64,000 bases of DNA from Candidatus Eiseniibacteriota bacterium (GCA_963744995.1 CAVUWA010000002.1:358654-422653), one strand, 5' to 3'; numbered from the stretch's first letter, positions 7,502 through 56,467 are shown. The notes: generated by a model not told the origin, from the sequence alone. Numbers and translations: made by a program.

Positions 7502-7643
7502 CGTGGAGCCTCATGACCGGTTGGAATCGAACCCGGGCCCCGTCAACGGCAGATCGAGGCTAGCACCGGGCGCCGGAATCGCCCAGGTCATTCCGCCTGG
7601 CCCGACGGATTCCACGGTGGCCCGTCCTGCGTGGGAAGGGCTT

Positions 7644-7660
7644 CCGGTGCTATTCTGAGC
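7644..7660 (+). promoter_or_regulatory. extended -10-like promoter element upstream of the beta-ureidopropionase operon
   Basis: ccggtgctattctgagc is identical to 3327-3343. TGcTATTCT lies about 100 nt upstream of ATG 7760, in the divergent intergenic region 7502-7759. Confidence 0.35.
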
Positions 7661-7759
7661 CGCATGCGCGTGGCGGGAGGTGGGACCTCCCCGTCCGTCA
7701 GGGCTCTCGAGGCCACGCGGCCCAGCGTGTCGTCCCTTTCGAATCGAGGAGAGAACTCC

Positions 7760-34195: not shown

Positions 34196-34214
34196 CCGGG
34201 GAGAGGAGACGCTG

Positions 34215-35546: not shown

Positions 35547-36208
35547 GCTCGGAACGGGGAGGGCCTGCGGGGGTGAGGATCCTGGTCGGCAGCGGCCTCA
35601 TCGTGATCATCGCGCTCGGTGCGATGCTGTTCATCGAACCGTGGGTGATCGGCAAGGCGAAGGGGCTCGAGCGCGAGGGCAGGCTGGATCAGGAGATCGC
35701 ATTTCTCGCCGAGGCCGAGACCATGGTGCCGTGGGGCCACGACATCGGCGAGCGCCTCGACGACGCGATGTTGCGCCGTGCCGAGCAGGGTCTCCAGGCC
35801 GATCGCCTGGACGAGGCCACGCGCGCGTTCCGCGAGGCGTGGCCGCGCATGAAGGCGCGCGGCAAGGCGGAGGACGACCGCGTGCTGACGCTCGCCGTCA
35901 CGACCTTCGCCCGCGACTCCGAGCGGCTGCGGCGCCAGGGGCGGCTGAGCCTCGCCGCCGACTTCAACGACAGTCTGTTCGTCTATGCCGTACGGGCGCC
36001 GGATCCGGTGCACCGCCAGGCCGCGTTGCAGGCGTTCACGGAGGGGCTCAACCTGCGCGTGCTGGACGGCCATCCATGCGCGGCGCTCGCGCGGGTGAAG
36101 TGGGCGAAGCAGGGCCTCGGCGGGGTGGTACCGGGCCTCGATCCGAGCGTCGAGCAGGAACTCTCGCGCCAGTGTGCGCGCTCACGTCAGAGGAGGAGTA
36201 GCGGATGA
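35543..36208 (+). CDS. hypothetical single-pass membrane protein embedded in the pyrimidine-catabolism operon
   Basis: GTG 35543 overlaps TGA 35544-46; an alternative GTG lies at 35573. TM helix ILVGSGLIVIIALGAMLFIEPWVIG is followed by an alpha-helical soluble part. The stop overlaps preT's ATG (ATGA at 36205-08). No family recognised. Confidence 0.55.
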   Translation: MSSERGGPAGVRILVGSGLIVIIALGAMLFIEPWVIGKAKGLEREGRLDQEIAFLAEAETMVPWGHDIGERLDDAMLRRAEQGLQADRLDEATRAFREAWPRMKARGKAEDDRVLTLAVTTFARDSERLRRQGRLSLAADFNDSLFVYAVRAPDPVHRQAALQAFTEGLNLRVLDGHPCAALARVKWAKQGLGGVVPGLDPSVEQELSRQCARSRQRRSSG

Positions 36209-37545
36209 GCCGAAGCAGCGGTGCCGCGCCGATCGCGGCCGAACGTCTCGAACGACGGATCGCCGACGCGAAGCCGACGTATCTCGACGGCGAGGCGGTC
36301 GCGGAAGCGAACCGCTGCCTGTACTGCCACGACGCGCCGTGCGTCACGGCGTGCCCGACCGGCATCGACATTCCGGGCTTCATCCGCAAGATCGCGACCG
36401 GGAACGTACGCGGCGCGGCGAAGCGCATCCTGTCGGCGAACCTGCTCGGCTATTCGTGCGCACGCGTGTGTCCGGTCGAGGTCCTGTGCGTGGGCGCCTG
36501 CGTCTACAACGACTGGCACCGCACGCCACCGATCCAGATCGGCAAGCTGCAGCGCTACGCGACCGAAGGGCTGCTCGACGCGGGCCGGGTCGCCGGCGTG
36601 TTCGAGCGAGCGCGCCCGGTCGGGAAGAAGGTCGTCTGCATCGGTGGCGGACCGGCATCGCTCGCCACCGCGGGCTACCTGGCGCTCGAGGGCGTGGACG
36701 TGACGGTGCTCGAGGCGCGCCCGCTCGCCGGCGGACTCAACGTCACCGGCGTGGCGCCCTACAAGATGCACGCGGAAGGAGCGCTCGCGGAGGTCGATTT
36801 CGTCCGCTCGCTCGGCGTGACGATCCGCGAAGGCGTCGAGGTCGGCCGCGACGTCACGGTCGAGAGCCTGCTGGACGACTTCGACGCCGTTTTCGTGGGA
36901 GTCGGACTCGGCGCCGACGCGCGGCTCGGAATCCCGGGTGAAGAGGGCGACGGCGTGAGCGGCGCGACGGGCTGGATCGAGCGCATGAAGCTGGACCCGC
37001 GCTTCGGCCCGGTGGACGCCCGCGAGGCCGTGGTGATCGGCGGGGGCAACACCGCCATCGATGCCGCCCGCGAGCTCGCGCGGCTCGGCGTTCCGAGTGT
37101 GACCCTGGCCTACCGCCGGACGCAGGCCGAGATGAGCGGTTACGCGCACGAGCTCGAGGCGGCCCGTACCGACGGCGTCCACTTCGTGAGCCGGGCGGTG
37201 CCGAAGGCGTTCGAGCGCGACGCCGAAGGGCGGCTCCGGGCGCTCGAGCTCGAGGACGGGCGCCGGCTGCCGGCCGACCTGTGCATCGTCGCCATCGGCC
37301 AGGCGAAGCTGGTGACGACCCTGAAGAAGCTGCCGGGCATCGAACTCGATGCGCGCGGTCTGATCGTGGTCGAGGAAGCCACCGGCGCGACCGGGCACCC
37401 GAAGGTGTTCGCCGGCGGCGACGCCCTGGGGGGCGAGCTGGTGGTCACCGCGGTGCAGGACGGCAAGCGCGCGGCGCGCGGGATTTGCGCGCAGATCGGC
37501 GTCAGGATCCGCCCCGATTCGCCGATGTCGGCGGGTCACGCCTGA
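36205..37545 (+). CDS. preT: NAD-dependent dihydropyrimidine dehydrogenase subunit PreT (GltD-like)
   Basis: N-terminal Fe-S motif CLYCHDAPCVTACPTGIDIP and CARVCPVEVLCVGAC. Dinucleotide folds VVCIGGGPASLATAGYL and VVIGGGNTAIDAAREL. Context is dihydropyrimidinase upstream. Confidence 0.85.
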   Translation: MSRSSGAAPIAAERLERRIADAKPTYLDGEAVAEANRCLYCHDAPCVTACPTGIDIPGFIRKIATGNVRGAAKRILSANLLGYSCARVCPVEVLCVGACVYNDWHRTPPIQIGKLQRYATEGLLDAGRVAGVFERARPVGKKVVCIGGGPASLATAGYLALEGVDVTVLEARPLAGGLNVTGVAPYKMHAEGALAEVDFVRSLGVTIREGVEVGRDVTVESLLDDFDAVFVGVGLGADARLGIPGEEGDGVSGATGWIERMKLDPRFGPVDAREAVVIGGGNTAIDAARELARLGVPSVTLAYRRTQAEMSGYAHELEAARTDGVHFVSRAVPKAFERDAEGRLRALELEDGRRLPADLCIVAIGQAKLVTTLKKLPGIELDARGLIVVEEATGATGHPKVFAGGDALGGELVVTAVQDGKRAARGICAQIGVRIRPDSPMSAGHA

Positions 37546-42812: not shown

Positions 42813-43817
42813 ATGAGCGACGCGATCTACCAGCGCGATCCCGCCCCGCGTCCCGACGCAGACTTCGAGCCCGGTGCGCTCGTGCATCTCGTGCCCGGCA
42901 ACGCCGGCCGCATGCTCGATCCGCGCCGCACGCCGGTCCGTGTCGCCGCACTGCAGCCGGAGACCGGCTGCTGGACCTGCGAGGTGACCGCGTTCGAGGA
43001 TCGTGGCGCGTGCTGGACGCTGCCGTTCGAGTCGATCCGTCACTTCCAGTTCGAGCGTGACGCCGTGCGGGCAGGCGCGGCGGCGGTCGCCGCATTCGAA
43101 GAGCAGATCCGGCGCTTCGCGGTGTCGCTCGTGCTCGAACCCGACCCCGAGCGCGCGCAGGCCACGCGCGCCGTGCTCGATCGCCGCCGTACCGACGCCG
43201 CGGCATGGCTCGCCGAACGCGCGCCCACGCTGCGCCGCGTCGCGACGCTCGATCACGCCGTGCGGCGCGCGCCGATCGCGACCATCGCCGCGTTCGAGAC
43301 GTTCATGCACGAGCACGGTCTGCTCGAGATGGACCGCGCGCTCGCGGGCGCGTACGTCACGAACCCGGCATCGGGCGAGATGGTGAAAGGGCATCTGATC
43401 ACGATGGCCGAGATGGGCATCGCGCCGTTCCGTGGCACCATCGTGCGCGACCCGGCGACGTTCGAAGGCGAGTGGCGCAAGTCGCGCCGCGCGGACCACG
43501 TGCTCTGGCGCACGGCGTTCCTGCACGCGATGCTCGCGGCGCTGCAGCTCGAAACGCTGGAGCTTTACCGCGGCGTGCCGAGCGAGGCCGGCATCGATCC
43601 CGCGCGAAGCAACGTGCTCGAATCGTGGTCGTTCTCGCGCGAGGTCGCAGAAGGCGTGGCCGGACCCGCCGGGGCGAGCGCTCACCGCGAGGTCCACACG
43701 CGGCGCGTATCCGCACCGGCGTGCCTTCATGACCTACCTCGAGACCCGCGCGATGAACCTGCAGTTCCTGGAGGCCGAGGCGGTGCTGTTCGCGAGGGGA
43801 GCGTGGCAGAGAATTGA
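42813..43817 (+). CDS. hypothetical protein; C-terminus probably continues in the +1 frame to 43878
   Basis: 334-aa ORF MSDAIYQRDPAPRPDADFEPGALVHLVPGN... The protein-like text FMTYLETRAMNLQFLEAEAVLF lies in the overlapping frame (track ORF 43432..43878). Confidence 0.6.
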   Translation: MSDAIYQRDPAPRPDADFEPGALVHLVPGNAGRMLDPRRTPVRVAALQPETGCWTCEVTAFEDRGACWTLPFESIRHFQFERDAVRAGAAAVAAFEEQIRRFAVSLVLEPDPERAQATRAVLDRRRTDAAAWLAERAPTLRRVATLDHAVRRAPIATIAAFETFMHEHGLLEMDRALAGAYVTNPASGEMVKGHLITMAEMGIAPFRGTIVRDPATFEGEWRKSRRADHVLWRTAFLHAMLAALQLETLELYRGVPSEAGIDPARSNVLESWSFSREVAEGVAGPAGASAHREVHTRRVSAPACLHDLPRDPRDEPAVPGGRGGAVREGSVAEN

Positions 43818-43864: not shown

Positions 43865-46780
43865 CTACTCCACCCTGACCTGGAACGTCACCGTGCCCGA
43901 CTCGCCCGGGTCGAGCACGCCGGCGAGGCTCCAGGTGACCGTGCCGCTCGCGCCGGCCGCGGGCTGTGACGACACGCCGCAGGCCGAGAGTCCGCCGCCG
44001 AGATTCCCGCACGAGGCCGACTCGAACACGGTCCACGCCGGCGTCGAATCCTGGATCACGATCGCCGAGAGCGGCGCGGCGCCGCTGTTGCGGTAGGTGA
44101 TGGTGTAGGTCAGCAGGTCGCCGGGGAGCGCGGTCGCCCGGTCCACCGCCTTGGTGATCTCGAGCGAGCCCGCGCCGTTGGTGGTGGTCACGTCGTCGAG
44201 CGCCACCGCACTCGAGAGCGGCGGTGCGGCGCCGGCGTAGTCCATCGTCGCTTCGACGTGCACGGTCTCGCTCGCTCCGGCGGGCGCGGTGAGCGGAATC
44301 ACGTGCCGCAGGATCACGCATACGGTCTGGCCGGCGCTCACGCTGAGCGCGCCGACGATCAACGGCTCGCCCGCATCGAGTTGTCCGTCGCAGTTCAGGT
44401 CACGGTAGACGCCGGCGGTCCAGCCGGAGATCGCCGGGCTCGGTGCCTGCGTGGTCGCGAACGTCACGCCCCCCGCGCTGGCGGCGGTGAAGGTGTGCGG
44501 GTGCAGCACGATCGTGCCGGGCACGCCGGTGCGGTTGCCGGCCGGGACGAGCTGGTTCTGCGGTACGTCGCCGAACGTCGCGCCGTTCACGATCGCGCCG
44601 TTGACCGGGGTGAACGTCAGCGCGTCCGCCGCGCGGTCGTAGGCGCCGCCGGTCGCGCCCGGGGCGCCGCCGGTCGAGATCCAGCCCGCCGGATCGGTCT
44701 CGGCGATCGTCGCCGGCGCGCCGCCGGCGGCGCCGGGCGCCCACAGCGCCCAGCCGCCGCCGCCGTCGGTGAGCGCGCTGTCGCAGACGCCGCCCGCACA
44801 CGCCGCGGCCACGAGCCGCACGCGCACGCCGGCGACACCGCTTTCGCCGCCGTTCGCCGCGCCGTCGTTCGCCGTGCCGCCGCCCGCGCCGTCGTCGCGG
44901 ATCACGCGGCCCTCGGCGCGGCTGCCGAACCACAGGCCGAAGTTCTCGTTCGGGAGCGGATTCGAGCCGACGGTCACGCCGGTACGCACTCCGCCGGCCG
45001 CTTCGGTGCCGAGGTAGCCCGGCGGATACGCCGGCGTGACGTCGGCGAGCGTGGGATCGGTGTCGAGGATCAACGCGTAGCTCCCGAACGCGACGAGCCC
45101 GAAGGCGTAGACGCCCGAGGCCGGGTCGACGGCGGCTGCGGCCAGGGCGCTGCCGGGACTCGCGACGGGAACGAGCTTCGCCCACAGGGGAACGCCGGTT
45201 CCGGTCTCGGCGCCGTCCCACTGCAGGTTGTGGTTGGCGTCGAGGTAGGCGCGTCCCGAAAGGCTGGTGCCCACGACGCTGACGTCGGTGCGCTGCGCGC
45301 CCGCGGTGAACGTGTCGGCGTCGCTGGCCTCCGACATCGCCAGCATGAGCCGCGCGGCCACGAACGCGACGCGCGCCTGATTGGAGACCACGCTGCCCGC
45401 CGGCACCGGCGAATCGACCCGTACCCGGAAGCGCAACGTCGCCGCCTCGCCGGGGCCGAGCGTGCCGCCGCCCGCGGCGCCGGCGCCCGTGCCGACGCGA
45501 AATACGACCTCGTTCGATGCCGCGACGAATTCGGCCTGATCGTCGCCGCCGGCGTCGCTCTTCGCGCCGGCGTTGGCGCCGGCCAGGATCGCCATGGAGC
45601 CCGCGTCGTAGGTGGTGTTCGCAGGGATCGTGTCGCGCACCACCGCCGCCTCGGCGGCGTCGCTGCCGGCGTTGTGCACGCGGATCGTGTACTCGAGCAC
45701 GTCGCCGGGATGGACGTCACCGCCGTTCAGGTCGGTGACGAACTTGGTGAAGTTGCTGCCGCCGAGGATCGGCACGGCCAGGTCGGTCGAGAACGTCACC
45801 ACGGTCGGGAAATAGTGGTCGTCGCTCGAGACGAGCTGAATCGTCGCCGAGGTCGCACCGTTCGGAAGGATCCCCGGCGCCGCGACCCGGTCGATGTCTA
45901 TGCCGAAGTTGTTGACGTAGTTCGGCGTCTTGGCGGCGACCTGCGCCCCGAGGTCGCTGATCGAGCTGTTGAAGAAGTTGTCGGGCGGGTTCACGCCGTT
46001 GCCGAGCGCCACGCCGTTCAGCAGGAACTGGTCGCCGGGCGTCCACTGTTCGCCTTCCCACGCGAGCACGCCGAGGTGCGTGTTCACGATGCCGGCCGGC
46101 GGTGTCTCCAGTCCGGTCACTGGAATCGTCACCGACGCGCCCGGCAGCACTTCGGCGAGCCCGTCGAACACGACCAGGTTGCGCCGCGGCTCGGCGAGGT
46201 TCCGGTACACGACGACCAGCGACCAGCCGGCGAAGCGCTTCGCACCGGGCTGCGCCTGTACGTTGGCCACGGTATATGAACCGCTGCCGCCCGCCTGCAC
46301 CCGTGCCGTGACGTCGGCGAAGCCTTGATAGGTGCCGCCGCTGACGTCGAGCTGGGTCGCGGAGACCGTCGCGTAACCGGACGCGGGCGTCGCGAGCAGC
46401 GCGAGGCTGCGCGCGCCGTTGTTCGAGTCGCCGGACCAGTAGAGCCCTGCCCACAGGACGGTCGCCCCCGGCGGCAGCGACAGGGTGGCACGGCTCGAAT
46501 TGAACGTGGCGGGATCCGCGTCGATGTCCACCTGCTGCATCACCCAGTTGTTGTTGTTGGGATTGCCCGCGCCGTTCTGCGTGGCGGCGCAGTCGGCGTC
46601 GCCGCTGCGGCAGGTGGTGAGCGTGTTGCCGATCAGCAGAATGTCACCCTGACCGCTCGCGCTGTAGCGTGGCGTGAAGGCGCGGATCACCTGCGCGGCG
46701 GCCGGCGGGGCGGCAGCGGTGAGGGACAGTCCCGCGAGCACGACGAGCGCGGTGCGGAAACGAAGCCGGAGCCGCTTCAT
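43865..46780 (-). CDS. secreted DUF11-repeat adhesin-like protein
   Basis: ATG 46780 overlaps the upstream TGA (ATGA). MKRLRLRFRTALVVLAGLSLTAAAPPAAAQ is the signal peptide. The N-terminal roughly 300-aa domain reads IRAFTPRYSASGQGDILLIGNT..VDIDADPATFNSSRATLSLP..LWAGLYWSG. DUF11 repeats include HPGDVLEYTIRVHNAGSDAA..IPANTTY and LPGDLLTYTITYRNSGAAPLSAIVIQDSTPAWTVF. SdrD-B/CnaB-like segments are also present. The first 327 codons of the track ORF are not coding. Confidence 0.85.
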   Translation of the reverse strand: MKRLRLRFRTALVVLAGLSLTAAAPPAAAQVIRAFTPRYSASGQGDILLIGNTLTTCRSGDADCAATQNGAGNPNNNNWVMQQVDIDADPATFNSSRATLSLPPGATVLWAGLYWSGDSNNGARSLALLATPASGYATVSATQLDVSGGTYQGFADVTARVQAGGSGSYTVANVQAQPGAKRFAGWSLVVVYRNLAEPRRNLVVFDGLAEVLPGASVTIPVTGLETPPAGIVNTHLGVLAWEGEQWTPGDQFLLNGVALGNGVNPPDNFFNSSISDLGAQVAAKTPNYVNNFGIDIDRVAAPGILPNGATSATIQLVSSDDHYFPTVVTFSTDLAVPILGGSNFTKFVTDLNGGDVHPGDVLEYTIRVHNAGSDAAEAAVVRDTIPANTTYDAGSMAILAGANAGAKSDAGGDDQAEFVAASNEVVFRVGTGAGAAGGGTLGPGEAATLRFRVRVDSPVPAGSVVSNQARVAFVAARLMLAMSEASDADTFTAGAQRTDVSVVGTSLSGRAYLDANHNLQWDGAETGTGVPLWAKLVPVASPGSALAAAAVDPASGVYAFGLVAFGSYALILDTDPTLADVTPAYPPGYLGTEAAGGVRTGVTVGSNPLPNENFGLWFGSRAEGRVIRDDGAGGGTANDGAANGGESGVAGVRVRLVAAACAGGVCDSALTDGGGGWALWAPGAAGGAPATIAETDPAGWISTGGAPGATGGAYDRAADALTFTPVNGAIVNGATFGDVPQNQLVPAGNRTGVPGTIVLHPHTFTAASAGGVTFATTQAPSPAISGWTAGVYRDLNCDGQLDAGEPLIVGALSVSAGQTVCVILRHVIPLTAPAGASETVHVEATMDYAGAAPPLSSAVALDDVTTTNGAGSLEITKAVDRATALPGDLLTYTITYRNSGAAPLSAIVIQDSTPAWTVFESASCGNLGGGLSACGVSSQPAAGASGTVTWSLAGVLDPGESGTVTFQVRVE

Positions 46781-49700
46781 CGTCCCGTTCCCACGCGGCC
46801 GAACAGCGACTCGTCGAACTTCGCGCGCAGGCGCAGGTAGAACCCGGCGCGCAGGTAGTCCTCGGTCGGCAGATCCGGGTCCTCGTAGCCGAACCGGTTC
46901 CAGCCGGCCGACAGCCACACGCCGCCGCCGAGCATGCGGCCGACCTCGAGCCCGAGGCCGTCCTGACGGTCCGCGAAATCGTTCACGAACAGCACGCTGC
47001 CGCTGACGCCGGCGTCCCAGTCGCGATCGAAGTCCCACGTCCAGCGGCCGTGCAGCCACTGTGCGGTCGAGCGCACGGTGAGGCCGTTCTCGCGTTCGGA
47101 GACGACCTTGCCGGCCCAGGCGAATGCGCCGTGCGCCGCGGGCTCGATCGGGCCGCCCGCGTGCAGCGACAGTACGTTCGCCGTGCGCCGTCCACGGCCT
47201 TCCAGCGGTGAAGAGGTGCCGTCGAGGCGCAGCTCGTAGCGGCCGAGCAGATCCCACGCGGTCGCGTTCGGCTGGCGGAACGCGACGCCGAACTGCAGCC
47301 AGTCGCGCGAGGTGCGGTGCGCGCCGCTCTCGTCGGCGAAGTGGACCATGTTGCGGGCGAGCGCCGTCCAGTCCTCGTCGAGCCGCGCGGCCACCGCGAG
47401 CGTGCCGAGCACGCTGCGTGAGTCGCTGGCGCGGCGCATCTCCAGACGCGCCGACGACTTCACGTCGGCGTCGTCGGTGCTTTCGATCGCGCCGGTCACG
47501 GCCATGGACGGCCGGCCCGTGCCGGAGGAGAGCGGCGCGACGCGTTCGAACGTGGTGCTGACGCGCACGCCGTCGGCCGCACGCCACAGATGGCGCAGAC
47601 CCACGGCGACTTCGGCTTCGCGCTCGAGCAGCGCGTCCTCGGCACGCAGCTCGCCGAATACGTGCGCGTCGCGCGCGACGTCGGAGTCCACCCCGATCAC
47701 CGACGCCAGGCGGCGTTGCGTGTCGTTGAGCGTGTAGGCGCCGCCGAAGCTGGCGCTCCACTCCTGCCGGGCGTAGAGCCGCCCGATCCGGTCGAAGCGG
47801 TATTCGCCGCCGAGCGCCACCAGCCGCCGTCCCGCGCTCATCATGTCCTGCTCGTACTCGGTGTAGGCGCTCATCGCCGGGAAGCGACGCGGCTGCCCGG
47901 TGAGCTTCATGCGCAGGGCGACCAGGCCGAGCGTGTCGGAGCCGCCGGCCCCCGCGCCGGCCGCGAAGCGCGTGCCGATCTCGGCGCGCAACGACGGCGT
48001 CACCGCCTGATCGAAGCCGAGCAGCAGGCCGCCGAGCCTCCCGCCGCCCGCGGCGGCCGAATAGCGCGCGTCGGCCGTCAGCCGCGCGCCCGAGCCGAGC
48101 CGCCAGCGCATGCGGCCCAGCGCTTCGCGGCGCCCGCTCGCAAAACCGGAATAGGGATTGTCGAAGGTCGAGTCGGTGATCGCGCCGATCAGCTCGCCGG
48201 TGAGATTCGGCGCCTCGTGGTGCAGCTCGAAGCGGCTGCCGCCGCCGAACGTGCCGCCGAGGGCGCGCGTGGAAGCGTACTCGCCCTCGACGCGCGTGAA
48301 CGGGCCGAGCTTCGCGCCGAGGAACGCGCCGCGCAGTTCGGACACCGCCGCCGGATCGTGGTCGTCCACGTAGGTGCCGCCGACCTCGAGCGCGTCGGTC
48401 ACGTGGACCCGCGCTTCGCCGCCCGACACCCAGAAGGCGTCACCGCCGTCTTCGCGCGCATACGCCACGCGGATCGAGACCGGGTTGAGATCGGCATCGA
48501 AGCCCGGCACCGGCGACTTGAACGTGAGCCGTCCGGTGAGCGGTTCCAGCTGGTAGTCCGTGAAGCGCGAGCGCGGCGTCACGCTGAGCACGATGCCCGG
48601 CTGGTCGCGGTCGCGTACCACGATCTCGACCTGTTCGCTGTTCTCGATCAGGGGCGCGCCGGAGAGCGTGTAGGGGCCCGAGACACCGAGCCCGCGCAGC
48701 TCCTCGACGCTGCGGCGCGAGCGCTCGCGCGAGCTGAACGCCTCGACCCGCAGGTGCGCGTTCTCGAAGTGCTGCTGGACGCCGGTGAGGCTGCGGCGGT
48801 AGCCGGCGAGCGCGCGCGGCCCGCCGCCGGTGCGCGTGACGAAGTCGCCGTACAGCGTGGAGGCGCCGCCGTGATCCACGCGCGCGTAGAGTGCGCCGGT
48901 GGTGCGCGCCTCGAAGCCACGCAGCGACGCGTCGCCGTAGACGGGGTAGTAGGCATCCGGCTGGATGTCGCGCGAACGTGCGAGTCCATCGGGCCGGTCG
49001 GAGTCGTAGCCGAGCGTGACGTGGATGTCGTCGCGGATGCGTCCCTTCATGAACAGCGCGCCGCGCGCCGCGGCGGACGCGCGGCCGTCGCGGCGTTCGC
49101 TGCGGAACGCCTCCATCGGCGCTTCGAAGCTGCTTCGCCTCCGCTCGGCCGTCGAGAAGCCCCGCGAGAGATGGTCGAGCGACACCACGCCTTCGAACGT
49201 GCCGACCGCGAGGAACGGGCGGAACGCGGACACGAACGAGATGACGCTGGCCGTGCGCACCGGGCCCGCGCTCGCCTCGAGGGTGACGCGCCCGGGCTCG
49301 GCAGGCGGTGTGAACGGCAGCCGCGCCGCGCCGCCGCGCACCGCGACCTGCACGCCCGGGGTTTGCGGGTCGAGGTCGGCCGCGAGCCATTCGCCCGCGC
49401 TCGCCGTCAGCGTCACGCGCGTGAGGTCCGGCACCGGCAGCCCGTGCCGATCGAGGGCCCGCACCCGCACGGCGACGGCCGCGGCCTGCTCGAGCGTCGG
49501 CGGCGCATCGAACTCGAGTCGCGCGAGCGGCCCCGGGGCGACGATCGTGACCTCGGCATGACCGAACGGCCGGCCCTCGGGATCCTGCTGCGCGAGCTCG
49601 ATGCGGTTCTCGCCCGGGGCGAGCGCGACGCCGATGTATTCGCGCAGCTCGATGCCGAGGTCGTTGCGCGTCGCGGCGCGGCCGACCCGCGATTCGGGCA

Positions 49701-51447
49701 CGATCTCGCCATTACGCATGAGCACGAAGCCGAATCCGGCGCGCCCCTTCACGGTCAAACGGATCTGCCCGGCGAGCACGGTGTCGCGCGGCGCGAGGCC
49801 CACGAAGCCGGGCGCGGGATCGGTGAGGTCCATCACGTCCACCGGCCGCGGCGGAGCGGTGTCGAGTGCAGGTGAGGCCGCCGAGTCCCGGACGGCGGCG
49901 CCGATGCCCTGGATCTCTTTCGGGGCGAGCTCCGGCGGCGCGCTGTTCGAGCCGGCGCCTTCCGTGCCGTACCAGCCCGCGGCCGGGCGAGCGCGCAGGT
50001 CGGTGCCGGTGACCGGCGTGGTCTCGCGCGGCAGTTCGCTGCGCACCGCGCGTGTGAGTTCGGCGCCGCGGCCGGCGATCATGCGCGGATCGCGCGGCTT
50101 TGCGGCGGGCGGTTGCGTGGTGTCGGGCTGCACGGCGAAGTCGGCGCGTGCCATCTCGCCGCGCTGCAGGTCCACGAAACGCAGGGAGGGCATGTCGCCC
50201 TGGCGATGATCGGTCGCGAGCGGCTGCGCGCCCGCGGGCAGGGTCGAGGTGTCGAGCTTGAGCGCGTGCGTGCGCGGCGCCAGCCCGTAGAAGCTGTACT
50301 GGCCGTCGCGGTCGGTGAGCGCGAAGGTTCCGTCGTCCAGGTAGAGGCGCACGCCGGCGAGGCCGTGATCGCCCGCGCCGCGGCGCCCGTCGCCATCGGC
50401 ATCGGCGTACACGGCACCGAGGATGCTGCCTTCTTCGGCGAACACCCCGCCGAGCACGGTGACGCGCGCCGAGGCCCGGTTCGACGTCGCGCCGCCGCCC
50501 GCGCCCCACGCCGTGTTGAGCGCGTCGCCGCGCGGTGCGCCGCTGCCGATGCGTACGCGATAGCGCACCTCGGCGACGGCCTGCGGATCGAGCGGCCCGG
50601 CGTCGAATACCAGGTGCGGCCCGGCGCCCCCTGCGGGATCGGCGATGCGTCCCCCGCCCGCGAACGCGGTGCCGGCGACGTAGGCGAAGCCCGGCGGCAG
50701 ATCGTCGGTGACCGCGAGCGTGGTGAGCGCGCTGTCCGAGCGGTTGGCGATCCGGACACTGTACTCGAGCACGTCACCCGGCTCGGCGTACCGGCGCGAG
50801 GCGGTCTTTTCGGCGAACAGCGTGACGTCCGTCGCGGGCGGCGCGGCGGCGACGTACACCGTGTCGGTGTTCATGGCGAGCGCGCCCTGGGTGAGACCGG
50901 TCGCGGTGAGCCGCACCAGCGCCGGGCCGGGCGGCGTGAGGCCGGCCGGCACCGAGACGTTGAGCAGCAGGTCGAGCGCTTCGCCCGCAGCGACCTGCAA
51001 CGTGTCGCCGGGGCCGATCGTGATTTCGCCGCTGCTCTCGAGGCCGTCACGATTGCCGTCGAGCGTGAGGGTCAGCAGCCCCGCATCGAAGCCGTCGCCG
51101 GCGAGGTTGGCGACGTCGAAGCGCACGGAGGTCGCGACGTTGCCGGTGTTGACGAGCCGGTGCGCGAGGCTCGCGGCCGTGCCCGGGGCGATGGTGACCG
51201 ACTGCGAACGTTCGAGACGCAGCGTCTCGACCGGCTGCACCAGCGCGCGCACGGTGTCGGAGAAGGTGCTGAACGAACCGCCGGAGGGGTGTACCGCGGT
51301 GGCTTCCGCGGAATTGTCGACGGGCGTGCCGGCCGGCGGCGCCGCGCCCGCGGGTGCCGCGAGACACACGAAGGCCCCGATCAGCCAGGCCGTGATGTTT
51401 CGGCCTGCCCGTCGAGGGCCGCAGCGCGTCCGCGGGGTCGAATGCAT
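46777..51447 (-). CDS. 1556-aa outer-membrane protein: N-terminal DUF11/CnaB-like/Ig-like domains fused to a very large C-terminal beta-barrel-like region
   Basis: The signal is NITAWLIGAFVCLAAPAGAA. DUF11: EPGDVLEYSVRIANRSDSALTTLAVTDDLPPGFAYV. CnaB/SdrD-like: GAVYADADGDGRRGAGDHGLAGVRLYLDDGTFALTDRDGQYSF. The last 800-900 aa show alternating hydrophobic beta-strand patterning with aromatic strand ends (..ALYARVDHGGASTLYGDFV.., ..WLSAGWNRFGYEDP.., ..AGFYLRLRAKF). Confidence 0.85.
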   Translation of the reverse strand: MHSTPRTRCGPRRAGRNITAWLIGAFVCLAAPAGAAPPAGTPVDNSAEATAVHPSGGSFSTFSDTVRALVQPVETLRLERSQSVTIAPGTAASLAHRLVNTGNVATSVRFDVANLAGDGFDAGLLTLTLDGNRDGLESSGEITIGPGDTLQVAAGEALDLLLNVSVPAGLTPPGPALVRLTATGLTQGALAMNTDTVYVAAAPPATDVTLFAEKTASRRYAEPGDVLEYSVRIANRSDSALTTLAVTDDLPPGFAYVAGTAFAGGGRIADPAGGAGPHLVFDAGPLDPQAVAEVRYRVRIGSGAPRGDALNTAWGAGGGATSNRASARVTVLGGVFAEEGSILGAVYADADGDGRRGAGDHGLAGVRLYLDDGTFALTDRDGQYSFYGLAPRTHALKLDTSTLPAGAQPLATDHRQGDMPSLRFVDLQRGEMARADFAVQPDTTQPPAAKPRDPRMIAGRGAELTRAVRSELPRETTPVTGTDLRARPAAGWYGTEGAGSNSAPPELAPKEIQGIGAAVRDSAASPALDTAPPRPVDVMDLTDPAPGFVGLAPRDTVLAGQIRLTVKGRAGFGFVLMRNGEIVPESRVGRAATRNDLGIELREYIGVALAPGENRIELAQQDPEGRPFGHAEVTIVAPGPLARLEFDAPPTLEQAAAVAVRVRALDRHGLPVPDLTRVTLTASAGEWLAADLDPQTPGVQVAVRGGAARLPFTPPAEPGRVTLEASAGPVRTASVISFVSAFRPFLAVGTFEGVVSLDHLSRGFSTAERRRSSFEAPMEAFRSERRDGRASAAARGALFMKGRIRDDIHVTLGYDSDRPDGLARSRDIQPDAYYPVYGDASLRGFEARTTGALYARVDHGGASTLYGDFVTRTGGGPRALAGYRRSLTGVQQHFENAHLRVEAFSSRERSRRSVEELRGLGVSGPYTLSGAPLIENSEQVEIVVRDRDQPGIVLSVTPRSRFTDYQLEPLTGRLTFKSPVPGFDADLNPVSIRVAYAREDGGDAFWVSGGEARVHVTDALEVGGTYVDDHDPAAVSELRGAFLGAKLGPFTRVEGEYASTRALGGTFGGGSRFELHHEAPNLTGELIGAITDSTFDNPYSGFASGRREALGRMRWRLGSGARLTADARYSAAAGGGRLGGLLLGFDQAVTPSLRAEIGTRFAAGAGAGGSDTLGLVALRMKLTGQPRRFPAMSAYTEYEQDMMSAGRRLVALGGEYRFDRIGRLYARQEWSASFGGAYTLNDTQRRLASVIGVDSDVARDAHVFGELRAEDALLEREAEVAVGLRHLWRAADGVRVSTTFERVAPLSSGTGRPSMAVTGAIESTDDADVKSSARLEMRRASDSRSVLGTLAVAARLDEDWTALARNMVHFADESGAHRTSRDWLQFGVAFRQPNATAWDLLGRYELRLDGTSSPLEGRGRRTANVLSLHAGGPIEPAAHGAFAWAGKVVSERENGLTVRSTAQWLHGRWTWDFDRDWDAGVSGSVLFVNDFADRQDGLGLEVGRMLGGGVWLSAGWNRFGYEDPDLPTEDYLRAGFYLRLRAKFDESLFGRVGTGR

Positions 51448-51523
51448 GGCGGATTCGCCACCCTGCCGGAGGCCGTCCGAAGACGGCCCCCGGCGCAGGC
51501 GACGTGGATGACAGCTCCGATCG

Positions 51524-54145
51524 TTACGGGTCGATGCGCACGCCGAACGTGATCACCACCGACGCGCCCGGCGCCAGTGTTCCCACGGCGGCCGAGATCG
51601 ATCCGGTGGCGCCGTTGGCCGGCGTGGTGATCGTGCCGGCCGTCGTCGATGCCGGCACCGCGTTCGAGTACGTGGTGTTCGCCGGCGTCGCGTCGTCCAC
51701 GACGACGTTCGTCACCGAAGCCGTGCCCACGTTGGTCACGGTGATCTCGTACCTGAGACACGCCCCCGGTACGGCGCCCGCGGTGATGTTCGCGGTGCCG
51801 TAAGCCCCATCCGGGATGCCGTCACAGTTGCCGTCGAGCACCTGCCGCTTCACGACCTGCAGCTGGCCGTTCAGCACCGTCGAGTTGTCCGTGGCCGAGA
51901 CGGGCGCAGGGACCACGGACGCGTACCCGATGTTGGTGGTCGTCGCCGTGACCGTCGTGAGGTTCACCTGGCCGACCGGTGCGCCCGCCGGGGCGAACAC
52001 GCGCGCGAAGATCCGTATGGTGGCCCCCGGCGCCAGGCCGCCGATCGAGGACAGGTCCACGATCGCCGCGTCCGCGCCGTCGAAGATGCCGTTGTTGTTG
52101 CTGTCGACGTACAGGACGGACGACCAGCCGGCCTGGTTGTCGGCGGTGGTCAGCGCGACCACGCTGCCCGTGCCGTCGCCTTCCAGCACGTTGCCGGTGT
52201 TGGCGAGCAGATGCGTGTAGGTGACCGCGCCGCCCGGCGCCACCGACGCCGAGTTGTTCGGCACCAGCGTGAGCGAACGGACCGGGTTCACCGACACCGC
52301 GTCGTGGATCCGGTCGAGCGCCCCGGACACCGGCGAGCGGCCGCGGAAGTACAGGTCGAAGGTTCCGGGCGCGAAGCCGGCGGGCACGGACACGTCGGCA
52401 TAGACGAGCACGTTGCCACCGGCGGGCACGTTGCCCGTGTTGGTGATCACCACATTGCCGGCGTCACGGAACGTCACGTTCCAGCCGGCCGGCAGGACGA
52501 GCGTCGCGAACGACGCGTCGGTGCTGGCGGCGAGGTCGTAGTTGTCCGCGACCGCGCTCGTATTGTTGACGTACAGCGTGAAACGGGTGGTCGTCCCCGG
52601 TGCCGTGGCGTTGGTCACCACCGCGCCCGCCTCCGGACCGGCGCCGGCGCCCGGCGCGCCCGGCAGGGCCGCGTTGTTGGTGACGTCCACCGAACTCGCG
52701 GTGATGGCCGTGAGGATGTCGGTCGCGACCGCCGTCTGGCCCGGGTCGGTGAAGGAGGTCGCCGTCTTCGCGATCTGGTACGGCCCGCCCGTGGCTCCCG
52801 GCGGCAGCGCCACGCGCAGCACGATCGTCATGGAGGCGCCCGCGGCCAGCGGGCCGCTGTCCGGCGTGCCGTTGCCGTTGGTGTCGGTGAGCGGCGTGAC
52901 GCCGTCGCTCTGGTAGAGCGTGTAGCTCGCGCCGGCGGGGAACGTGCTGCCGCCGAGCGTGACGTCGAACACGTCCGAACCGTTGCCGGTGTTGGTGAGC
53001 GTGTTCGTGAACGCCACCGTCGCGCCCTGCAGCGCCGACGCCACCGTCTGACCGGTGAACGTGAGCGAGGCGGCCTGGAGCACCGTGAACGGCGTGCCGT
53101 TGGTGATGAACGGGCCGACAGGGCCGGAGCCGTCGTCGTACTGGTACGAGGCGATGTTGGTGATCGTCTGCGGCGTGAGACCCGGATCCACGTTCACCTG
53201 GAACGTGATCGTTCCGGAGGCGCCCGCCGGAATCTGATTGATCTGAGCCGCGACGTTGTTGGGCAGCGACACACCGAAGTCGTAGATGACGGTGTTCGGC
53301 GCGGTGCCCTGCGCGTCGGCGTTGTTGGCATCGGTGAGCGCCGTCGCGCCCGTGACGCTCCAGCGCCCCGAGCTCGGCACATAGGTCATGCCGAGCGGGA
53401 TCGCGTCGGTGAAGATCACGTTCGTCGCGGTGGCGTTGCCGGTGTTGTTGTAGGTGATCGTGTACGTATACGGGCCGCTCGGCGACGGGCCGGCCGGCTG
53501 ATCGATGGACTTGGTGACGTTCAGCACCGCGTTGCCCGACACCGTCACCGCGTCGGTGTTGAACGCGGTCTGGGCGTTGTCGAACACGCTCGTCGCGGTG
53601 ATCGTCGCCTGCGCGACGTCGCCGGCGACCTGGACCCCGGGCACGTTGCCGACGACCACGAACCGGAACTGCGCGCCCGCGGCGAGCGACCCGGTCGAGT
53701 TGATCGGCGTGAAGTTGTCGGGCACGCCGTCGCCGTTGGCGTCCGCATAGATCACGAGCCCGGCGAGGTCGAAGTCATCGCCGCCGAGGTTGGCCGGCGC
53801 GAGCGTGAAGTCGTCCGCGCCGTTGCCGGTGTTGGTGAGGGTGTGCGGGAACGTGGCCTGGCCGCCCGGGGCGGAGATCACGCTGCCGTCGGCCGTGAGC
53901 GTGAAGCTGGCGACCTGCTGGACGATCGTCGTGACCAGATTCGACGTCGCGGTGCGCGTCGTGCTGGTCGCGTCGAGGTACGTGGCCGTGGCCTGGTTGC
54001 CGATCGTGGTGCCGGCAGGAGGCGCGGCGGCCGCGTGGCCGACGAACGCCACGGCGGCGAGCATCGTGAGGCCGACCAGGGCCGCGCGACGCGCAGAGAC
54101 GAACCGACGCGGGGCGTCGGCCCAGACGAGGGGAATCATGGGCAT
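51524..54145 (-). CDS. secreted DUF11-repeat protein (873 aa)
   Basis: The signal is AALVGLTMLAAVAFVGHAAAAPPAGT. Repeated TIGR01451/DUF11-type units are present (YTYTITYNNTGNATATNVIFTDAIPLGMTYV; CLRYEITVTNVGTASVTNVVVDDATPANTTY). ATG 54145; ATG 54139 has better RBS spacing. Confidence 0.85.
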   Translation of the reverse strand: MPMIPLVWADAPRRFVSARRAALVGLTMLAAVAFVGHAAAAPPAGTTIGNQATATYLDATSTTRTATSNLVTTIVQQVASFTLTADGSVISAPGGQATFPHTLTNTGNGADDFTLAPANLGGDDFDLAGLVIYADANGDGVPDNFTPINSTGSLAAGAQFRFVVVGNVPGVQVAGDVAQATITATSVFDNAQTAFNTDAVTVSGNAVLNVTKSIDQPAGPSPSGPYTYTITYNNTGNATATNVIFTDAIPLGMTYVPSSGRWSVTGATALTDANNADAQGTAPNTVIYDFGVSLPNNVAAQINQIPAGASGTITFQVNVDPGLTPQTITNIASYQYDDGSGPVGPFITNGTPFTVLQAASLTFTGQTVASALQGATVAFTNTLTNTGNGSDVFDVTLGGSTFPAGASYTLYQSDGVTPLTDTNGNGTPDSGPLAAGASMTIVLRVALPPGATGGPYQIAKTATSFTDPGQTAVATDILTAITASSVDVTNNAALPGAPGAGAGPEAGAVVTNATAPGTTTRFTLYVNNTSAVADNYDLAASTDASFATLVLPAGWNVTFRDAGNVVITNTGNVPAGGNVLVYADVSVPAGFAPGTFDLYFRGRSPVSGALDRIHDAVSVNPVRSLTLVPNNSASVAPGGAVTYTHLLANTGNVLEGDGTGSVVALTTADNQAGWSSVLYVDSNNNGIFDGADAAIVDLSSIGGLAPGATIRIFARVFAPAGAPVGQVNLTTVTATTTNIGYASVVPAPVSATDNSTVLNGQLQVVKRQVLDGNCDGIPDGAYGTANITAGAVPGACLRYEITVTNVGTASVTNVVVDDATPANTTYSNAVPASTTAGTITTPANGATGSISAAVGTLAPGASVVITFGVRIDP

Positions 54146-54226
54146 CTCCCTGTAGCTCAGAGAAGGGTTCTCATGGACGGCCGCCCGCTCGTGCGGCGCG
54201 GCCGGATGTTCGAATCGAAGGACCTG

Positions 54227-54730
54227 CTACTGGACGTTCGAGGCCACGCCCGCCGGCGCCACGCGCATACGGGCGCGCACGACCTGTTCGCCATTGGCGT
54301 CGAGGTCGCCGAGCGCCCAGCGCAGCGCGCGGTACTCCCGATAGGGCACGAGCTGCTCGATTTCGTCGCCGTTCGGAAGGCGCACGAGGCGCTTGAGCGG
54401 AACGGGGGCGAAGGTCTTTCCGTCGAGGCTCGCCGTCACCCGCGCGGGCGCCGCGCTCCCCGGCACGTACTCCATGCCGGCGGGAACGGGCAGCGAGGCG
54501 AGCAGCTGGTGCGCGGTGGCGTCACCCTCGTTGAGGTAACGCGCGCGGTACTCGATGGTCTCGCCCGGCCGTACCTGCTCGGCCGCGGCGAGATGTTCGG
54601 CGCCGTGTGCGTCGGTGGTGACGCGCTGGGCCGTCATCGAAACCCTGACGTCGCCGTCGGCGTGCGCAGGAGCGGCGAACGCGAAAGCGACGAGGGCGAG
54701 GACAGCGGGGGCAAAGCGATGCGGATGCAT
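54227..54730 (-). CDS. small secreted single-DUF11-like-domain protein
   Basis: ATG 54730 is preceded by GGGAGGA. MHPHRFAPAVLALVAFAFAAPAHA is the signal peptide. RPGETIEYRARYLNEGDATAHQLLASLPVPAGMEYV is DUF11-like. It is the first gene of the cluster. Confidence 0.75.
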   Translation of the reverse strand: MHPHRFAPAVLALVAFAFAAPAHADGDVRVSMTAQRVTTDAHGAEHLAAAEQVRPGETIEYRARYLNEGDATAHQLLASLPVPAGMEYVPGSAAPARVTASLDGKTFAPVPLKRLVRLPNGDEIEQLVPYREYRALRWALGDLDANGEQVVRARMRVAPAGVASNVQ

Positions 54731-54979
54731 GTCCGGATCCTCCCTGACCTGGTCCATACGAACGTGACCGGATCCAGGCGCGGAAGCCGCAGCTCTCGCG
54801 CAAGGACCGCGAGGCGGGCACCGGATCGAACACCCGACGTCTCGGCGAGGGGCCTGAGCCGGGTCGGGTGCCTGCCAGGTCGAGGTATCGGAAGCAGTCG
54901 CTGGAGGATTTAGGGGATTCCGGTGCGCTCGCGGCGCGGGAGCGGTGTCGGGCCGGGTGGAGCCCGCCCGGATCGGCCG

Positions 54980-54992
54980 CCGGTGCTACAAT
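54980..54992 (+). promoter_or_regulatory. extended -10-like promoter element upstream of preA
   Basis: ccggTGcTACAAT shares the CCGGTGCTA prefix with the 3327 and 7644 sites. It lies about 130 nt upstream of ATG 55124, in the divergent 54731-55123 spacer. Confidence 0.35.
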
Positions 54993-55123
54993 CCCCGCTT
55001 CGCGGAACGCGCGGCCCGAGAGCCGCCCGATCGTCCGCGCCGGTTGAGAGGCCGGCCGCTCGCGCCGATGGCCGAGCGGCCCGGCGGTATTCCGGTCGCG
55101 GCGCACGTCATACCGGATCGATC

Positions 55124-56467
55124 ATGGCTGACCTTTCCATCGACTTCGCGGGCATCAAGAGTCCCAACCCCTTCTGGCTGGCGAGCGCGCCGCCCACCAA
55201 TTCCGGCGACCAGGTCATGCGAGCGTTCGACATGGGCTGGGGCGGCGCGGTGTGGAAGACGCTCGGCGATCCGATCATCGACACCTCGAGCCGCTTCGGC
55301 TCGCTCGACGTCGGCAACCAGCGCATGGTGGGGTTCAACAATATCGAGCTCATCACCGACCGGCCGCTCGAGGTGAACCTGCGCGAGATCCGCGAGGTGA
55401 AGAAGCGCTACCCCGACCGCGCCGTGATCGTCTCGCTGATGGTCGAGTCGAAGGCGGACTGGAAGGAGATCATCAAGCGCACGATCGACACCGGTTGCGA
55501 CGGGCTCGAACTCAACTTCGGCTGCCCGCACGGCATGTGCGAGCGGGGCATGGGCTCGGCCGTGGGCCAGGAGCCGAAAGTGCTCACCACCGTCGCCGGC
55601 TGGGTGGTCGAGTACTCGACGGTTCCGGTGCTGGTCAAGCTGACGCCCAACGTCGGCGACATCCTCGAGCCCGGCCTCGCCGCGGTCGAGGCGAGGGTGC
55701 ACGGCCTCTCGCTGATCAACACGATCAAGAGCCTGATCGGCGTGGACCTCGAGCGCTTCGTACCCTACCCGGTCGTCGGGCAGCGCTCGACCAACGGCGG
55801 CTACTGCGGGCCGGCGGTGAAGCCGATCGCGCTGCACATGGTGGCGGCGCTGGCGCGCGACCCGCGGATCGGCGTGCCGATCTCGGGTATCGGCGGCATC
55901 GGCACCTGGCGCGACGCGGCGGAGTTCATCGCGCTGGGTTCGACCAGCGTGCAGGTCTGCACCGCCGTGATGCACTATGGCTTCCGGATCGTGGAGGACA
56001 TGATCGAGGGGCTCTCCAACTACCTCGACGATCACGGCATGAAGTCGGTCACCGACCTGCGCGGTCGCGCGTTGCCCGCGTTCACCGAATGGGGTGACCT
56101 CGACCTCCATTACAAGGTCGTCGCGGAGGTCGACGCCGACAAGTGCATCGGCTGCGATCTGTGCTACGTCGCGTGCCGTGACACCGCGGTGAACTGCATT
56201 CACACGGCTGCAGAGCCGTTGAAGGAGGGCCACCTGGCGCCCACGCGCGAAGCCGCGATGGCGGCGGCGAAGGCGAAGGACGCCCACGTGGTCTGGGTGG
56301 ACGAGACGGAGTGCATCGGCTGCAACCTGTGTTCGGCGGTGTGCCCCGTGCACGACTGCATCACGATGAAGGACGTCACGAACGGGCGGCCGTTCGAATC
56401 GTGGAACGACCGGATCGCGAAGGGCACCGCCCACGTGCCGGGCGGGCTCCACGATCCGGTGAGCTGA
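55124..56467 (+). CDS. preA: NAD-dependent dihydropyrimidine dehydrogenase subunit PreA
   Basis: MADLSIDFAGIKSPNPFWLASAPP... (DHOD-like TIM barrel). LNFGCPHGM, GGYCGPAVKPIAL and SGIGGI are present. Two C-terminal 4Fe-4S ferredoxin motifs are CIGCDLCYVACRD and CIGCNLCSAVCPV. The first 67 codons of the track ORF are non-coding. Confidence 0.92.
   Translation: MADLSIDFAGIKSPNPFWLASAPPTNSGDQVMRAFDMGWGGAVWKTLGDPIIDTSSRFGSLDVGNQRMVGFNNIELITDRPLEVNLREIREVKKRYPDRAVIVSLMVESKADWKEIIKRTIDTGCDGLELNFGCPHGMCERGMGSAVGQEPKVLTTVAGWVVEYSTVPVLVKLTPNVGDILEPGLAAVEARVHGLSLINTIKSLIGVDLERFVPYPVVGQRSTNGGYCGPAVKPIALHMVAALARDPRIGVPISGIGGIGTWRDAAEFIALGSTSVQVCTAVMHYGFRIVEDMIEGLSNYLDDHGMKSVTDLRGRALPAFTEWGDLDLHYKVVAEVDADKCIGCDLCYVACRDTAVNCIHTAAEPLKEGHLAPTREAAMAAAKAKDAHVVWVDETECIGCNLCSAVCPVHDCITMKDVTNGRPFESWNDRIAKGTAHVPGGLHDPVS

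Follow-up and report, generated by a model that had tools for sequence, protein, structure and literature searches.

How are the DUF11 proteins that abound on the surfaces of Gram-negative bacteria exported and assembled? These proteins lack a known route. DUF11 is an isopeptide-bonded CnaA-like domain that has been renamed CLIPPER (PMC12617251). We address the question with a cluster of four genes, g1 to g4, in a stretch of 64,000 nucleotides from a Candidatus Eiseniibacteriota bacterium (GCA_963744995.1, CAVUWA010000002.1:358654-422653), which is called the window below and whose first letter is position 1. An earlier note on this DNA had listed four genes on the minus strand, the last two joined by an ATGA overlap. 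An open reading frame (ORF) scan finds all four, consecutive and co-directional, in the region 43865-54757, and the ATGA shared by the stop codon of g3 and the start codon of g4 can be read directly. In the order of transcription, the genes and their products, with lengths in amino acids (aa), are as follows:

g1: 54227-54730, minus strand, 167 aa, a small Sec-exported single-domain beta-sandwich, distantly DUF11-like
g2: 51524-54145, minus strand, 873 aa, a subunit of several immunoglobulin (Ig)-like domains with a putative donor at its N terminus and a putative acceptor at its C terminus
g3: 46777-51447, minus strand, 1556 aa, a putative donor hairpin, a g2-like first domain, a DUF11/SdrD_B/Big_1-like stalk and a giant predicted C-terminal barrel
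g4: 43865-46780, minus strand, 971 aa, a tip-type adhesin with a DUF3344-like head, an Ig-like stalk and a putative C-terminal acceptor, with no donor

On balance, we favor the reading that the four genes are a self-sufficient module, which builds a covalently linked fibre on the surface of diderm bacteria, as the sequence analysis and structural models described below suggest. The module would offer CLIPPER surface proteins a concrete and testable route, which would need Sec, presumably the beta-barrel assembly machinery, and these four genes only. Sec-type signal peptides, none of them with a lipobox, can be read from the translations of g1 to g4, and all four products would reach the periplasm via Sec.

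A CLIPPER domain split between subunits

The DUF11 domains at the C termini of g2 and g4 stop short of the end of the family profile. Their Pfam matches end at position 84 of 114 (positions 2-84 for the g4 domain taken alone), and in 59 g2-type and 35 g4-type sequences the protein ends zero to two residues past the same strand. From 58 g2 homologues we took the complete internal domain and built a hidden Markov model (HMM) of 143 positions; the terminal domains align to it up to about position 113, and none of 86 such domains (56 of g2 and 30 of g4) reaches position 125. The mature N termini of g2 (APPAGTTIGNQATATYLDATSTTRTATSNLVTTIVQQ) and g3 (APPAGTPVDNSAEATA...SDTVRALVQP) resemble the end of the complete internal g2 domain (TITNIASYQYDDGSGPVGPFITNGTPFTVLQ), and the g2 segment aligns to the last 30 or so positions of the complete-domain HMM. 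These segments directly follow the signal peptide and are strongly conserved in alignments of 63 g2 and 42 g3 N termini. When an HMM of the donor motif was run on 84 loci and on a six-frame translation of the window, it matched at the N termini of g2 (score 62.5) and g3 (score 45.3) only, and found no such motif at the N terminus of g4. We propose that the terminal CLIPPER domain of g2 and g4 would act as an acceptor, that is, a beta-sandwich with a Lys and a catalytic Asp that lacks its last two strands, and that the first 36 or so residues of mature g2 and g3 would act as a donor, the missing hairpin carrying the Asn. The proposed halves in the window are:

g2 donor hairpin: 53918..54025, minus strand, residues 41-76 (APPAGTTIGNQATATYLDATSTTRTATSNLVTTIVQ), with Asn50 (53996-53998) as the putative isopeptide Asn
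g3 donor hairpin: 51235..51342, minus strand, residues 36-71 (APPAGTPVDNSAEATA...SDTVRALVQ), with Asn45 at 51313-51315
g2 acceptor: 51527..51874, minus strand, residues 758-873, a truncated DUF11/CLIPPER domain with Lys766 and Asp818 that ends in ITFGVRIDP* and has no Asn
g4 acceptor: 43868..44176, minus strand, residues 869-971, a truncated DUF11/CLIPPER domain with Lys877 and Asp911 that ends in GTVTFQVRVE*

We appended the donor peptides to the truncated domains and compared the profile matches. With the g2 peptide appended, the Pfam match to DUF11 extended to position 103 of 114 (2-103 for g4), and those to DUF7507 (to about 100 of 105), DUF7927 (to 117 of 132) and DUF7619 were also extended, with most scores rising. 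In the complete-domain HMM, the cognate g2 donor added 9.0 bits to g2 acceptors (positive in 56/56) and 10.3 bits to g4 acceptors (30/30), and the g3 donor added 7.0 bits (27/27) and 8.0 bits (14/14), respectively. The real peptides raised the score in all 127 cases, by 7-10 bits, and shuffled donors changed it by –0.5 bits on g2 acceptors and –1.1 bits on g4 acceptors.

The residues of the isopeptide bond are divided in the same way. In the CLIPPER structure with PDB code 9IFR, the bond residues are K715, D748 and N806 (PMC12617251), and we read the triad at the Lys, Asp and Asn columns of the complete domain. One g2 domain contains the complete triad (K212, D247 and N330). The terminal domains of g2 (K766 and D818) and g4 (K877 and D911) contain the Lys and Asp only, and the Asn is found in the donors (N50 in g2 and N45 in g3); the spacing from Lys to Asp in g4 is 34, like that of K715 and D748 in 9IFR (PMC12617251). 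The acceptor Asp is kept in 55 of 57 g2 and 29 of 29 g4 sequences, the first-strand Lys in about 46 of 48 g2 acceptors, and the donor Asn fills the complete-domain Asn column without exception (57/57, 29/29 and, for g3 donors, 28/28). A search of the PDB with phmmer, using a chimera of the g4 acceptor and a donor, did not retrieve 9IFR and gave weak matches only, which included Spb1, a pilin of group B Streptococcus. The near-invariance of the split triad suggests that a Lys-Asn bond, formed spontaneously, probably closes each joint. The donor would insert into the acceptor of another subunit by strand complementation, and the Lys and Asn would then probably react spontaneously, in the manner of SpyTag/SpyCatcher, so that an intermolecular isopeptide bond locks the joint.

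Two pairs of conserved Cys residues were also observed in the acceptors. The g2 acceptor has an insertion after its first strand (residues 775-797 or so) with a conserved pair (DxxCDG ... PGxC) that probably forms a disulfide in the periplasm, and the g4 acceptors have another conserved pair, different from that of g2.

Both halves of the split domain are carried by g2, and its hairpin might accordingly close its own C-terminal domain into a loop, with g3 and g4 being separate surface proteins. That structure predictors often let pilins complement themselves also fits this explanation. However, such intramolecular completion would leave unexplained why g3 is donor-only and g4 acceptor-only in every locus, as well as the constant adjacency of the three genes, and we give it little credence. 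We favor instead a polar chain. Since the acceptor stands alone in g4 and the donor alone in g3, whereas g2 has both halves, g4-(g2)n-g3 is the sole consistent chain, in which the g4 adhesin would stand at the distal tip, n copies of g2 would form the shaft, and the stalk of g3 would lead to a barrel in the outer membrane. Such a chain could grow in two modes. In basal growth through the barrel, g4 would emerge first and the stalk of g3 itself would be pulled out last; if subunits were instead added distally to an exposed stalk of g3, the chain would end with g4 as its terminator.

The predicted barrel of g3 and the small protein g1

The earlier note had taken the C terminus of g3 for beta-barrel-like and had seen in none of the genes the motifs of known ushers, TpsB/Omp85, autotransporters or type V pilins. 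We modelled the following region with AlphaFold2 from a 36-sequence alignment:

g3 residues 700-1556: 46780..49350, minus strand, the last Ig-like domain, a small conserved beta domain and a predicted barrel of at least 32 strands (AlphaFold2, Foldseek)

The model is all-beta with about 40 strands (mean predicted local distance difference test score, pLDDT, 77; predicted template modelling score, pTM, 0.71). Its last 570 residues form 32 consecutive long strands, and its C-terminal end is a conserved YLRLRAKFDE motif. A well-predicted small beta domain ahead of these strands holds the most conserved motif of the family (ENSEQVEIVVRDRDQP) and is a candidate plug of the barrel. When the model was compared with the PDB using Foldseek, all significant matches were large outer-membrane barrels (Deinococcus SlpA, MtrB, LptD, FimD/PapC, TonB-dependent receptors and SprA); none was preferred, and the best TM-score normalised by the query was at most 0.25. 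Single-sequence and family-profile searches of the PDB yielded no barrel match, and the sole matches of g3 in these searches, the CLIPPER domain 9IFR and SdrD, both fell in the stalk. No Pfam family matched residues 450-1556 or so. Pfam, NCBIfam, the PDB sequence and profile searches and Foldseek yielded no specific match to a known barrel family. The expectation of the earlier note was thus borne out on both counts, and the C-terminal 850 or so residues of g3 appear to be a very large outer-membrane barrel outside known families.

A phmmer search of 1.84 billion cluster representatives yielded 2576 relatives of the barrel at E ≤ 1e-3 and 1086 at E ≤ 1e-30. The barrel represents a large uncharacterised outer-membrane family, of about 2600 clusters at 50% identity, for which there is no Pfam model. 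Homologues of about 900 aa that looked like barrels alone proved to be gene fragments without signal peptides. Some g3 homologues have Invasin_D3-like or Big_1 domains beside the barrel, and homology between g3 and g2 is seen over their N-terminal 200 aa (34% identity). The barrel of the Variovorax protein is directly followed by an OmpA peptidoglycan-binding domain, which argues that the C terminus of the barrel is on the periplasmic side. With the C terminus there and an even number of strands, the stalk would cross the lumen to reach the surface. Barrel proteins with a C-terminal OmpA domain were seen in some Betaproteobacteria (P0111, P0114 and P0118-P0120; Xenophilus, Variovorax and Acidovorax), and some loci (L032, L037 and L049) have a separate OmpA-like ORF downstream of g3.

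The g3 barrel would most likely be a conduit, as an usher is, in addition to the anchor of the fibre. We favor export of g2 and g4 through it over other routes because the module is autonomous, is not accompanied by secretion genes and has a barrel that is oversized for a mere anchor. Alternatively, the barrel might only anchor the fibre, and g2 and g4 might leave the cell by a general pathway, namely the type II secretion system or, in this organism, the type IX secretion system (T9SS), and attach outside to the exposed g3 stalk by distal growth. The polarity of the chain would be equally compatible with distal growth, and the organism of the window has T9SS-type cargo proteins. However, no T9SS C-terminal domain was found in g1 to g4 with Pfam, the module is present in phyla without T9SS, no secretion genes are conserved beside it, and at least 32 strands far exceed the needs of an anchor. 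We therefore regard an anchor-only barrel as rather improbable.

The AlphaFold2 model of g1 is a beta-sandwich of 10 strands (pLDDT 87), for which Foldseek gave generic matches only, to Ig and carbohydrate-binding module folds; 9IFR reached a TM-score of 0.45, normalised by the target. Neither the isopeptide Lys nor the Asp is present in g1, and in five aligned sequences the position of the Asp is occupied by Ser, Thr or Asn (A[STN]LP). Plausibly, g1 would be a non-reactive periplasmic chaperone or cap that prevents irreversible polymerisation in the periplasm; it would most likely block the reaction between donor and acceptor there, or cap the end of the chain. At the proposed tip of the chain, the DUF3344-like head of g4 comprises residues 95-289 (45914-46498).

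Distribution of the module and comparison with known systems

The gene set recurs elsewhere, as one would expect from the earlier note, which had read it as a candidate assembly system. For four homologues that were looked up (from Usitatibacter rugosus, Variovorax and two Eisenbacteria-type contigs), the genomic surroundings are unrelated but the gene order is shared: it runs from a small product of 168-211 aa through one of 866-985 aa and the barrel protein to a DUF11 adhesin. The downstream adhesin varies, examples being a protein of 1350 aa with GEVED and SpaA, one of about 1640 aa with a NosD beta-helix and one of 7656 aa. In a scan with one genome per species, at least 524 genomes had the barrel. 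We fetched 80 loci, and 84 loci were used in the module-wide motif and clustering scans. The 80 loci include Eisenbacteria, Beta- and Gammaproteobacteria, Verrucomicrobiota, Nitrospirota, Thermodesulfovibrionales, Desulfuromonadales/Geobacteraceae and Entotheonella (at least six phyla). Among the 58 loci with enough upstream DNA, g1, g2 and g3 were adjacent in 55, and g1 lay upstream of g2 in 57. A complete downstream gene with a C-terminal domain of the g4 kind was found in 31 loci, the others running off the contig or into frame noise. All-against-all clustering of the ORFs of the 84 loci revealed no further conserved genes, only antisense shadows of g2 to g4. Identity between phyla is 38-52% for g1 and 41% for g2 (full length, compared with the Usitatibacter counterpart). 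The carriers are mostly bacteria of soil, groundwater and sediment, uncultured Eisenbacteria among them, and the fibres may matter for particle attachment and biofilms.

Additional minor subunits are hinted at in some loci by small extra ORFs on the downstream side that have either a weak donor-like motif or a C terminus of the acceptor type (L046:19023-20345 and a 191-aa ORF in the same locus). The sfz stalk-formation cluster of iron oxidisers was also considered (a Gallionellaceae locus has the barrel) and proved unrelated, with BcsB-like and glycosyltransferase genes (PMC8250860).

One locus, from a metagenome-assembled genome of Burkholderiales (L078:3626-13090), differs in its shaft. Its g3 has 3155 aa, with complete g2-like domains between the donor hairpin and the barrel. 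We rejected the idea that this is a "Rosetta stone" fusion of g2 and g3 with a junction completed in cis; it is a g3 with extra complete domains, and the locus has no g2. Because the shaft is fused to the anchor here, a separate polymerising shaft is not obligatory. The locus fits an alternative in which the products form a defined three-part adhesin (g3-g2-g4 at 1:1:1, or g3-g4), covalent or not, and g2 does not homopolymerise. The donor and acceptor evidence fits this alternative equally, and downstream adhesins can be very long by themselves (7656 aa). However, the g2 donor fits its own acceptor as well as that of g4 (+9.0 versus +10.3 bits), and no sequence feature of g2, which holds donor and acceptor, prevents chain growth. 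We consider the three-part adhesin unlikely.

Several points weigh against the covalent fibre that we favor. The support consists of sequence analysis and two single-chain models, and the closure of the barrel and its strand number are deduced from the DSSP string and the Foldseek matches. The acceptor Lys of g4 is aligned in only 21 of 29 sequences. The confident model of g1 is a beta-sandwich complete in itself and gives no sign that the protein would bind a strand. Furthermore, g2 could in principle complement itself, g2 and g4 might cross the outer membrane by a system other than g3, and in L078, where g2 is missing, g2-like domains are part of g3 itself.

The earlier note had likened the logic of the cluster to chaperone-usher systems, and the split isopeptide domain, with its N-terminal donor and C-terminal acceptor, gives this likeness a concrete basis. 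The module shares with the chaperone-usher pathway (FimD/PapC and PapD-like proteins) Sec-exported, incomplete Ig-like subunits, each of which would receive its missing strand from the N terminus of the next, an acceptor-only tip adhesin, a dedicated barrel, a small periplasmic Ig-fold protein, the absence of an ATPase and an autonomous operon. The incomplete Ig fold, the N-terminal donor strand and the donor-less tip adhesin are all present in analogous, non-homologous form. However, the subunits of the module have 870 to more than 7000 aa and many domains, their joint is probably covalent, and the barrel of at least 32 strands is fused to a donor-bearing stalk, so that anchor, terminator and barrel are one protein. 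No sequence kinship or specific fold kinship was found for the barrel, the chaperone or the subunits by Pfam, PDB profile searches or Foldseek. In particular, a PF00577-type usher (a 24-strand barrel with plug, N-terminal domain and C-terminal domains) was not recognised in g3 by Pfam, NCBIfam, PDB profile searches or Foldseek, and g1, in place of the two domains of a PapD-like chaperone, has a single domain (about 140 aa) that finds no match to PapD in Pfam and has no chaperone in its Foldseek list.

Nevertheless, the module might belong, as a strongly diverged member, to the classical or archaic chaperone-usher pathway. FimD and PapC are among the Foldseek matches of the barrel (E about 1e-5), and the logic of an incomplete fold and an N-terminal strand is shared. 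On the other hand, there is no Usher, PapD or fimbrial match in Pfam and no usher in the PDB profile search; the query-normalised TM-scores of 0.15-0.25 are no better than those of LptD, MtrB and TonB-dependent receptors; g1 has a single domain; and the subunits are multi-domain proteins of the CLIPPER type. We find such a kinship scarcely credible.

A second set of known systems combines strand insertion with a covalent lock. BsaA of Clostridium perfringens assembles by donor-strand "exchange and lock", in which an N-terminal strand is inserted and an intermolecular isopeptide bond then forms (10.1101/2024.11.04.621531), and archaeal threads (Sulfolobus) likewise combine insertion of an N-terminal strand with a spontaneous intermolecular isopeptide bond (PMC9715654; 10.1101/2022.04.26.489512). 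At the sequence level, the module has the same elements, namely an N-terminal donor with an Asn and an acceptor with a Lys and an acidic residue. However, BsaA/TasA fibres and archaeal threads are built from single-domain subunits with a TasA/camelysin-like fold and an N-E-K triad, in monoderm or archaeal envelopes without an outer-membrane barrel, whereas the module has the CLIPPER fold and an N-D-K triad. No Pfam match to TasA/camelysin or thread subunits was found in g1 to g4, and the likeness is one of principle only.

The domain family itself is that of the CLIPPER fibrillar adhesins, such as Acinetobacter B9T28_05395 (PDB 9IFR), with what would be the same Lys-Asp-Asn chemistry; the DUF11 domains of the module belong to this family by profile match and by their Lys-Asp-Asn triad. 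CLIPPER domains form the stalks of long Gram-negative surface adhesins, some of which have OmpA-like anchors (PMC12617251). The bonds described in these adhesins are intramolecular, within a single polypeptide, whereas the terminal domain of the module is split over two polypeptides. In SpyTag/SpyCatcher and isopeptag/pilin-C, a reactive strand has been separated from an isopeptide domain, and the two parts reconstitute covalently. Those pairs are man-made splits of Gram-positive CnaB, whereas in the module a CnaA-like CLIPPER domain would be split naturally and serve assembly.

Other systems were considered one by one. Type Va and inverse autotransporters (intimin/invasin) also have an Ig-like stalk and an outer-membrane barrel in one polypeptide, but their barrel has 12 strands and belongs to known Pfam families, and they lack partner subunits and a split domain. 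The PF03797 12-strand barrel and alpha-helical linker of type Va autotransporters are not seen in g3, which has at least 32 strands and no pre-barrel helix in the model; for inverse autotransporters, there is no IAT_beta match, and the g3 barrel is C-terminal, not N-terminal. Pfam found no POTRA, Bac_surface_Ag, ShlB or TPS match in g1 to g4, as would be expected of two-partner secretion or Omp85 proteins. Sortase pili are not indicated, as g2 ends in VRIDP* and g4 in VRVE*, with no hydrophobic tail, and the module has no sortase gene. Por_Secre_tail and FlgD_ig, the marks of T9SS cargo, are absent from g1 to g4 (Pfam), and the module also occurs in Proteobacteria. Type V pili (FimA/Mfa of Bacteroidota) differ in that the products here have no lipobox Cys and the donor is N-terminal rather than C-terminal. 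In the full-text literature, subscription-only papers excluded, we came across no account of the module or of any split CLIPPER domain.

We accordingly rate the components as lying outside known kinds and the module as a covalent counterpart of the chaperone-usher pilus in the way it would work. The broader claim is that it defines a widespread, unrecognised class of Gram-negative pili, with at least 524 species-level genomes from six or more phyla, in which multi-domain subunits polymerise by a natural split CLIPPER domain, a barrel of at least 32 strands is usher, terminator and anchor at once, and a new single-domain protein is the chaperone; we hold this claim more tentatively, a little short of an even chance. 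If true, it would add a pilus biogenesis pathway to the chaperone-usher, type IV, type V, curli and sortase pathways. It would also unite usher-type donor-strand assembly at a barrel with spontaneous intermolecular isopeptide locking, which have so far been seen apart, and would provide diderms with covalent fibres without sortase or ATP. The natural donor and acceptor pairs (a 36-aa tag and a catcher of about 115 aa), available from many lineages, are candidate orthogonal reagents for protein ligation.

Gene calls and genomic surroundings

The start of g1 was placed at the second ATG, which has a GGGAGGA Shine-Dalgarno sequence 7 nt upstream and gives a protein of 167 aa; the upstream ATG would give 176 aa. 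The G+C content at third codon positions of the four genes is 0.82-0.94 in DNA of 70% GC (window), which argues that they are real genes. In Pfam, g1 has a weak match to DUF11 (E = 0.006), and DUF11 scores above the threshold in g2, g3 and g4. The earlier note had described g2 as consisting of DUF11 repeats throughout, which does not stand, as Pfam gives a mix of Ig-like domain types (DUF11, DUF7619, NPCBM_assoc and DUF7927). DUF11 and SdrD_B match g3 at residues 213-314 and 345-408, respectively, and g4 has DUF3344 (sub-threshold, residues 95-289), DUF7619, two DUF11 domains and DUF7927. The TIGR01451 repeat was the sole addition from NCBIfam, in which (June 2026) neither g1, nor the g2 family, nor the barrel is represented by a model. 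Searches of PDB sequences with g2 and g4 yielded no match.

The genes that flank the module are housekeeping genes: pntAB, isocitrate dehydrogenase (icd), PreA- and PreT-like subunits of dihydropyrimidine dehydrogenase and a DUF4032 kinase. Genes resembling those of reductive pyrimidine catabolism (a hydantoinase-like amidohydrolase, an aminotransferase, PreT-like and PreA-like dehydrogenase subunits and a CN-hydrolase) are scattered over 32783-37545, 54923-56467 and 7631-8626, all on the plus strand. The PreT-like and PreA-like genes, which are usually adjacent, are 17 kb apart here, with pntAB, icd and the DUF11 module in between, and the module may therefore sit in an insertion between them.

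Elsewhere in the window, four large neighbouring secreted proteins (1272, 707, 3270 and 1396 aa; 10890-32074, minus strand) end in FlgD_ig or Por_Secre_tail, and a 453-aa protein (1889-3250, plus strand) has an ending of the same type, the T9SS C-terminal sorting signal. The 3270-aa protein combines DMFA2_C, DUF4082, Big_5, PhoD-like and fn3 domains. Taken with the closest homologues of the module, these sorting signals suggest a member of the FCB group, probably of Candidatus Eisenbacteria. A 334-aa ORF (42813-43817, plus strand), convergent with g4, has good coding statistics and no Pfam match. On the plus strand opposite g4, g3 and g2 lie antisense ORFs of 673 aa (44258-46279), 761 aa (47590-49875) and 900 aa (52211-54913), respectively. 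Equivalent shadow ORFs cluster across the 84 related loci; they are an artefact of GC-rich coding DNA and no evidence of genes.

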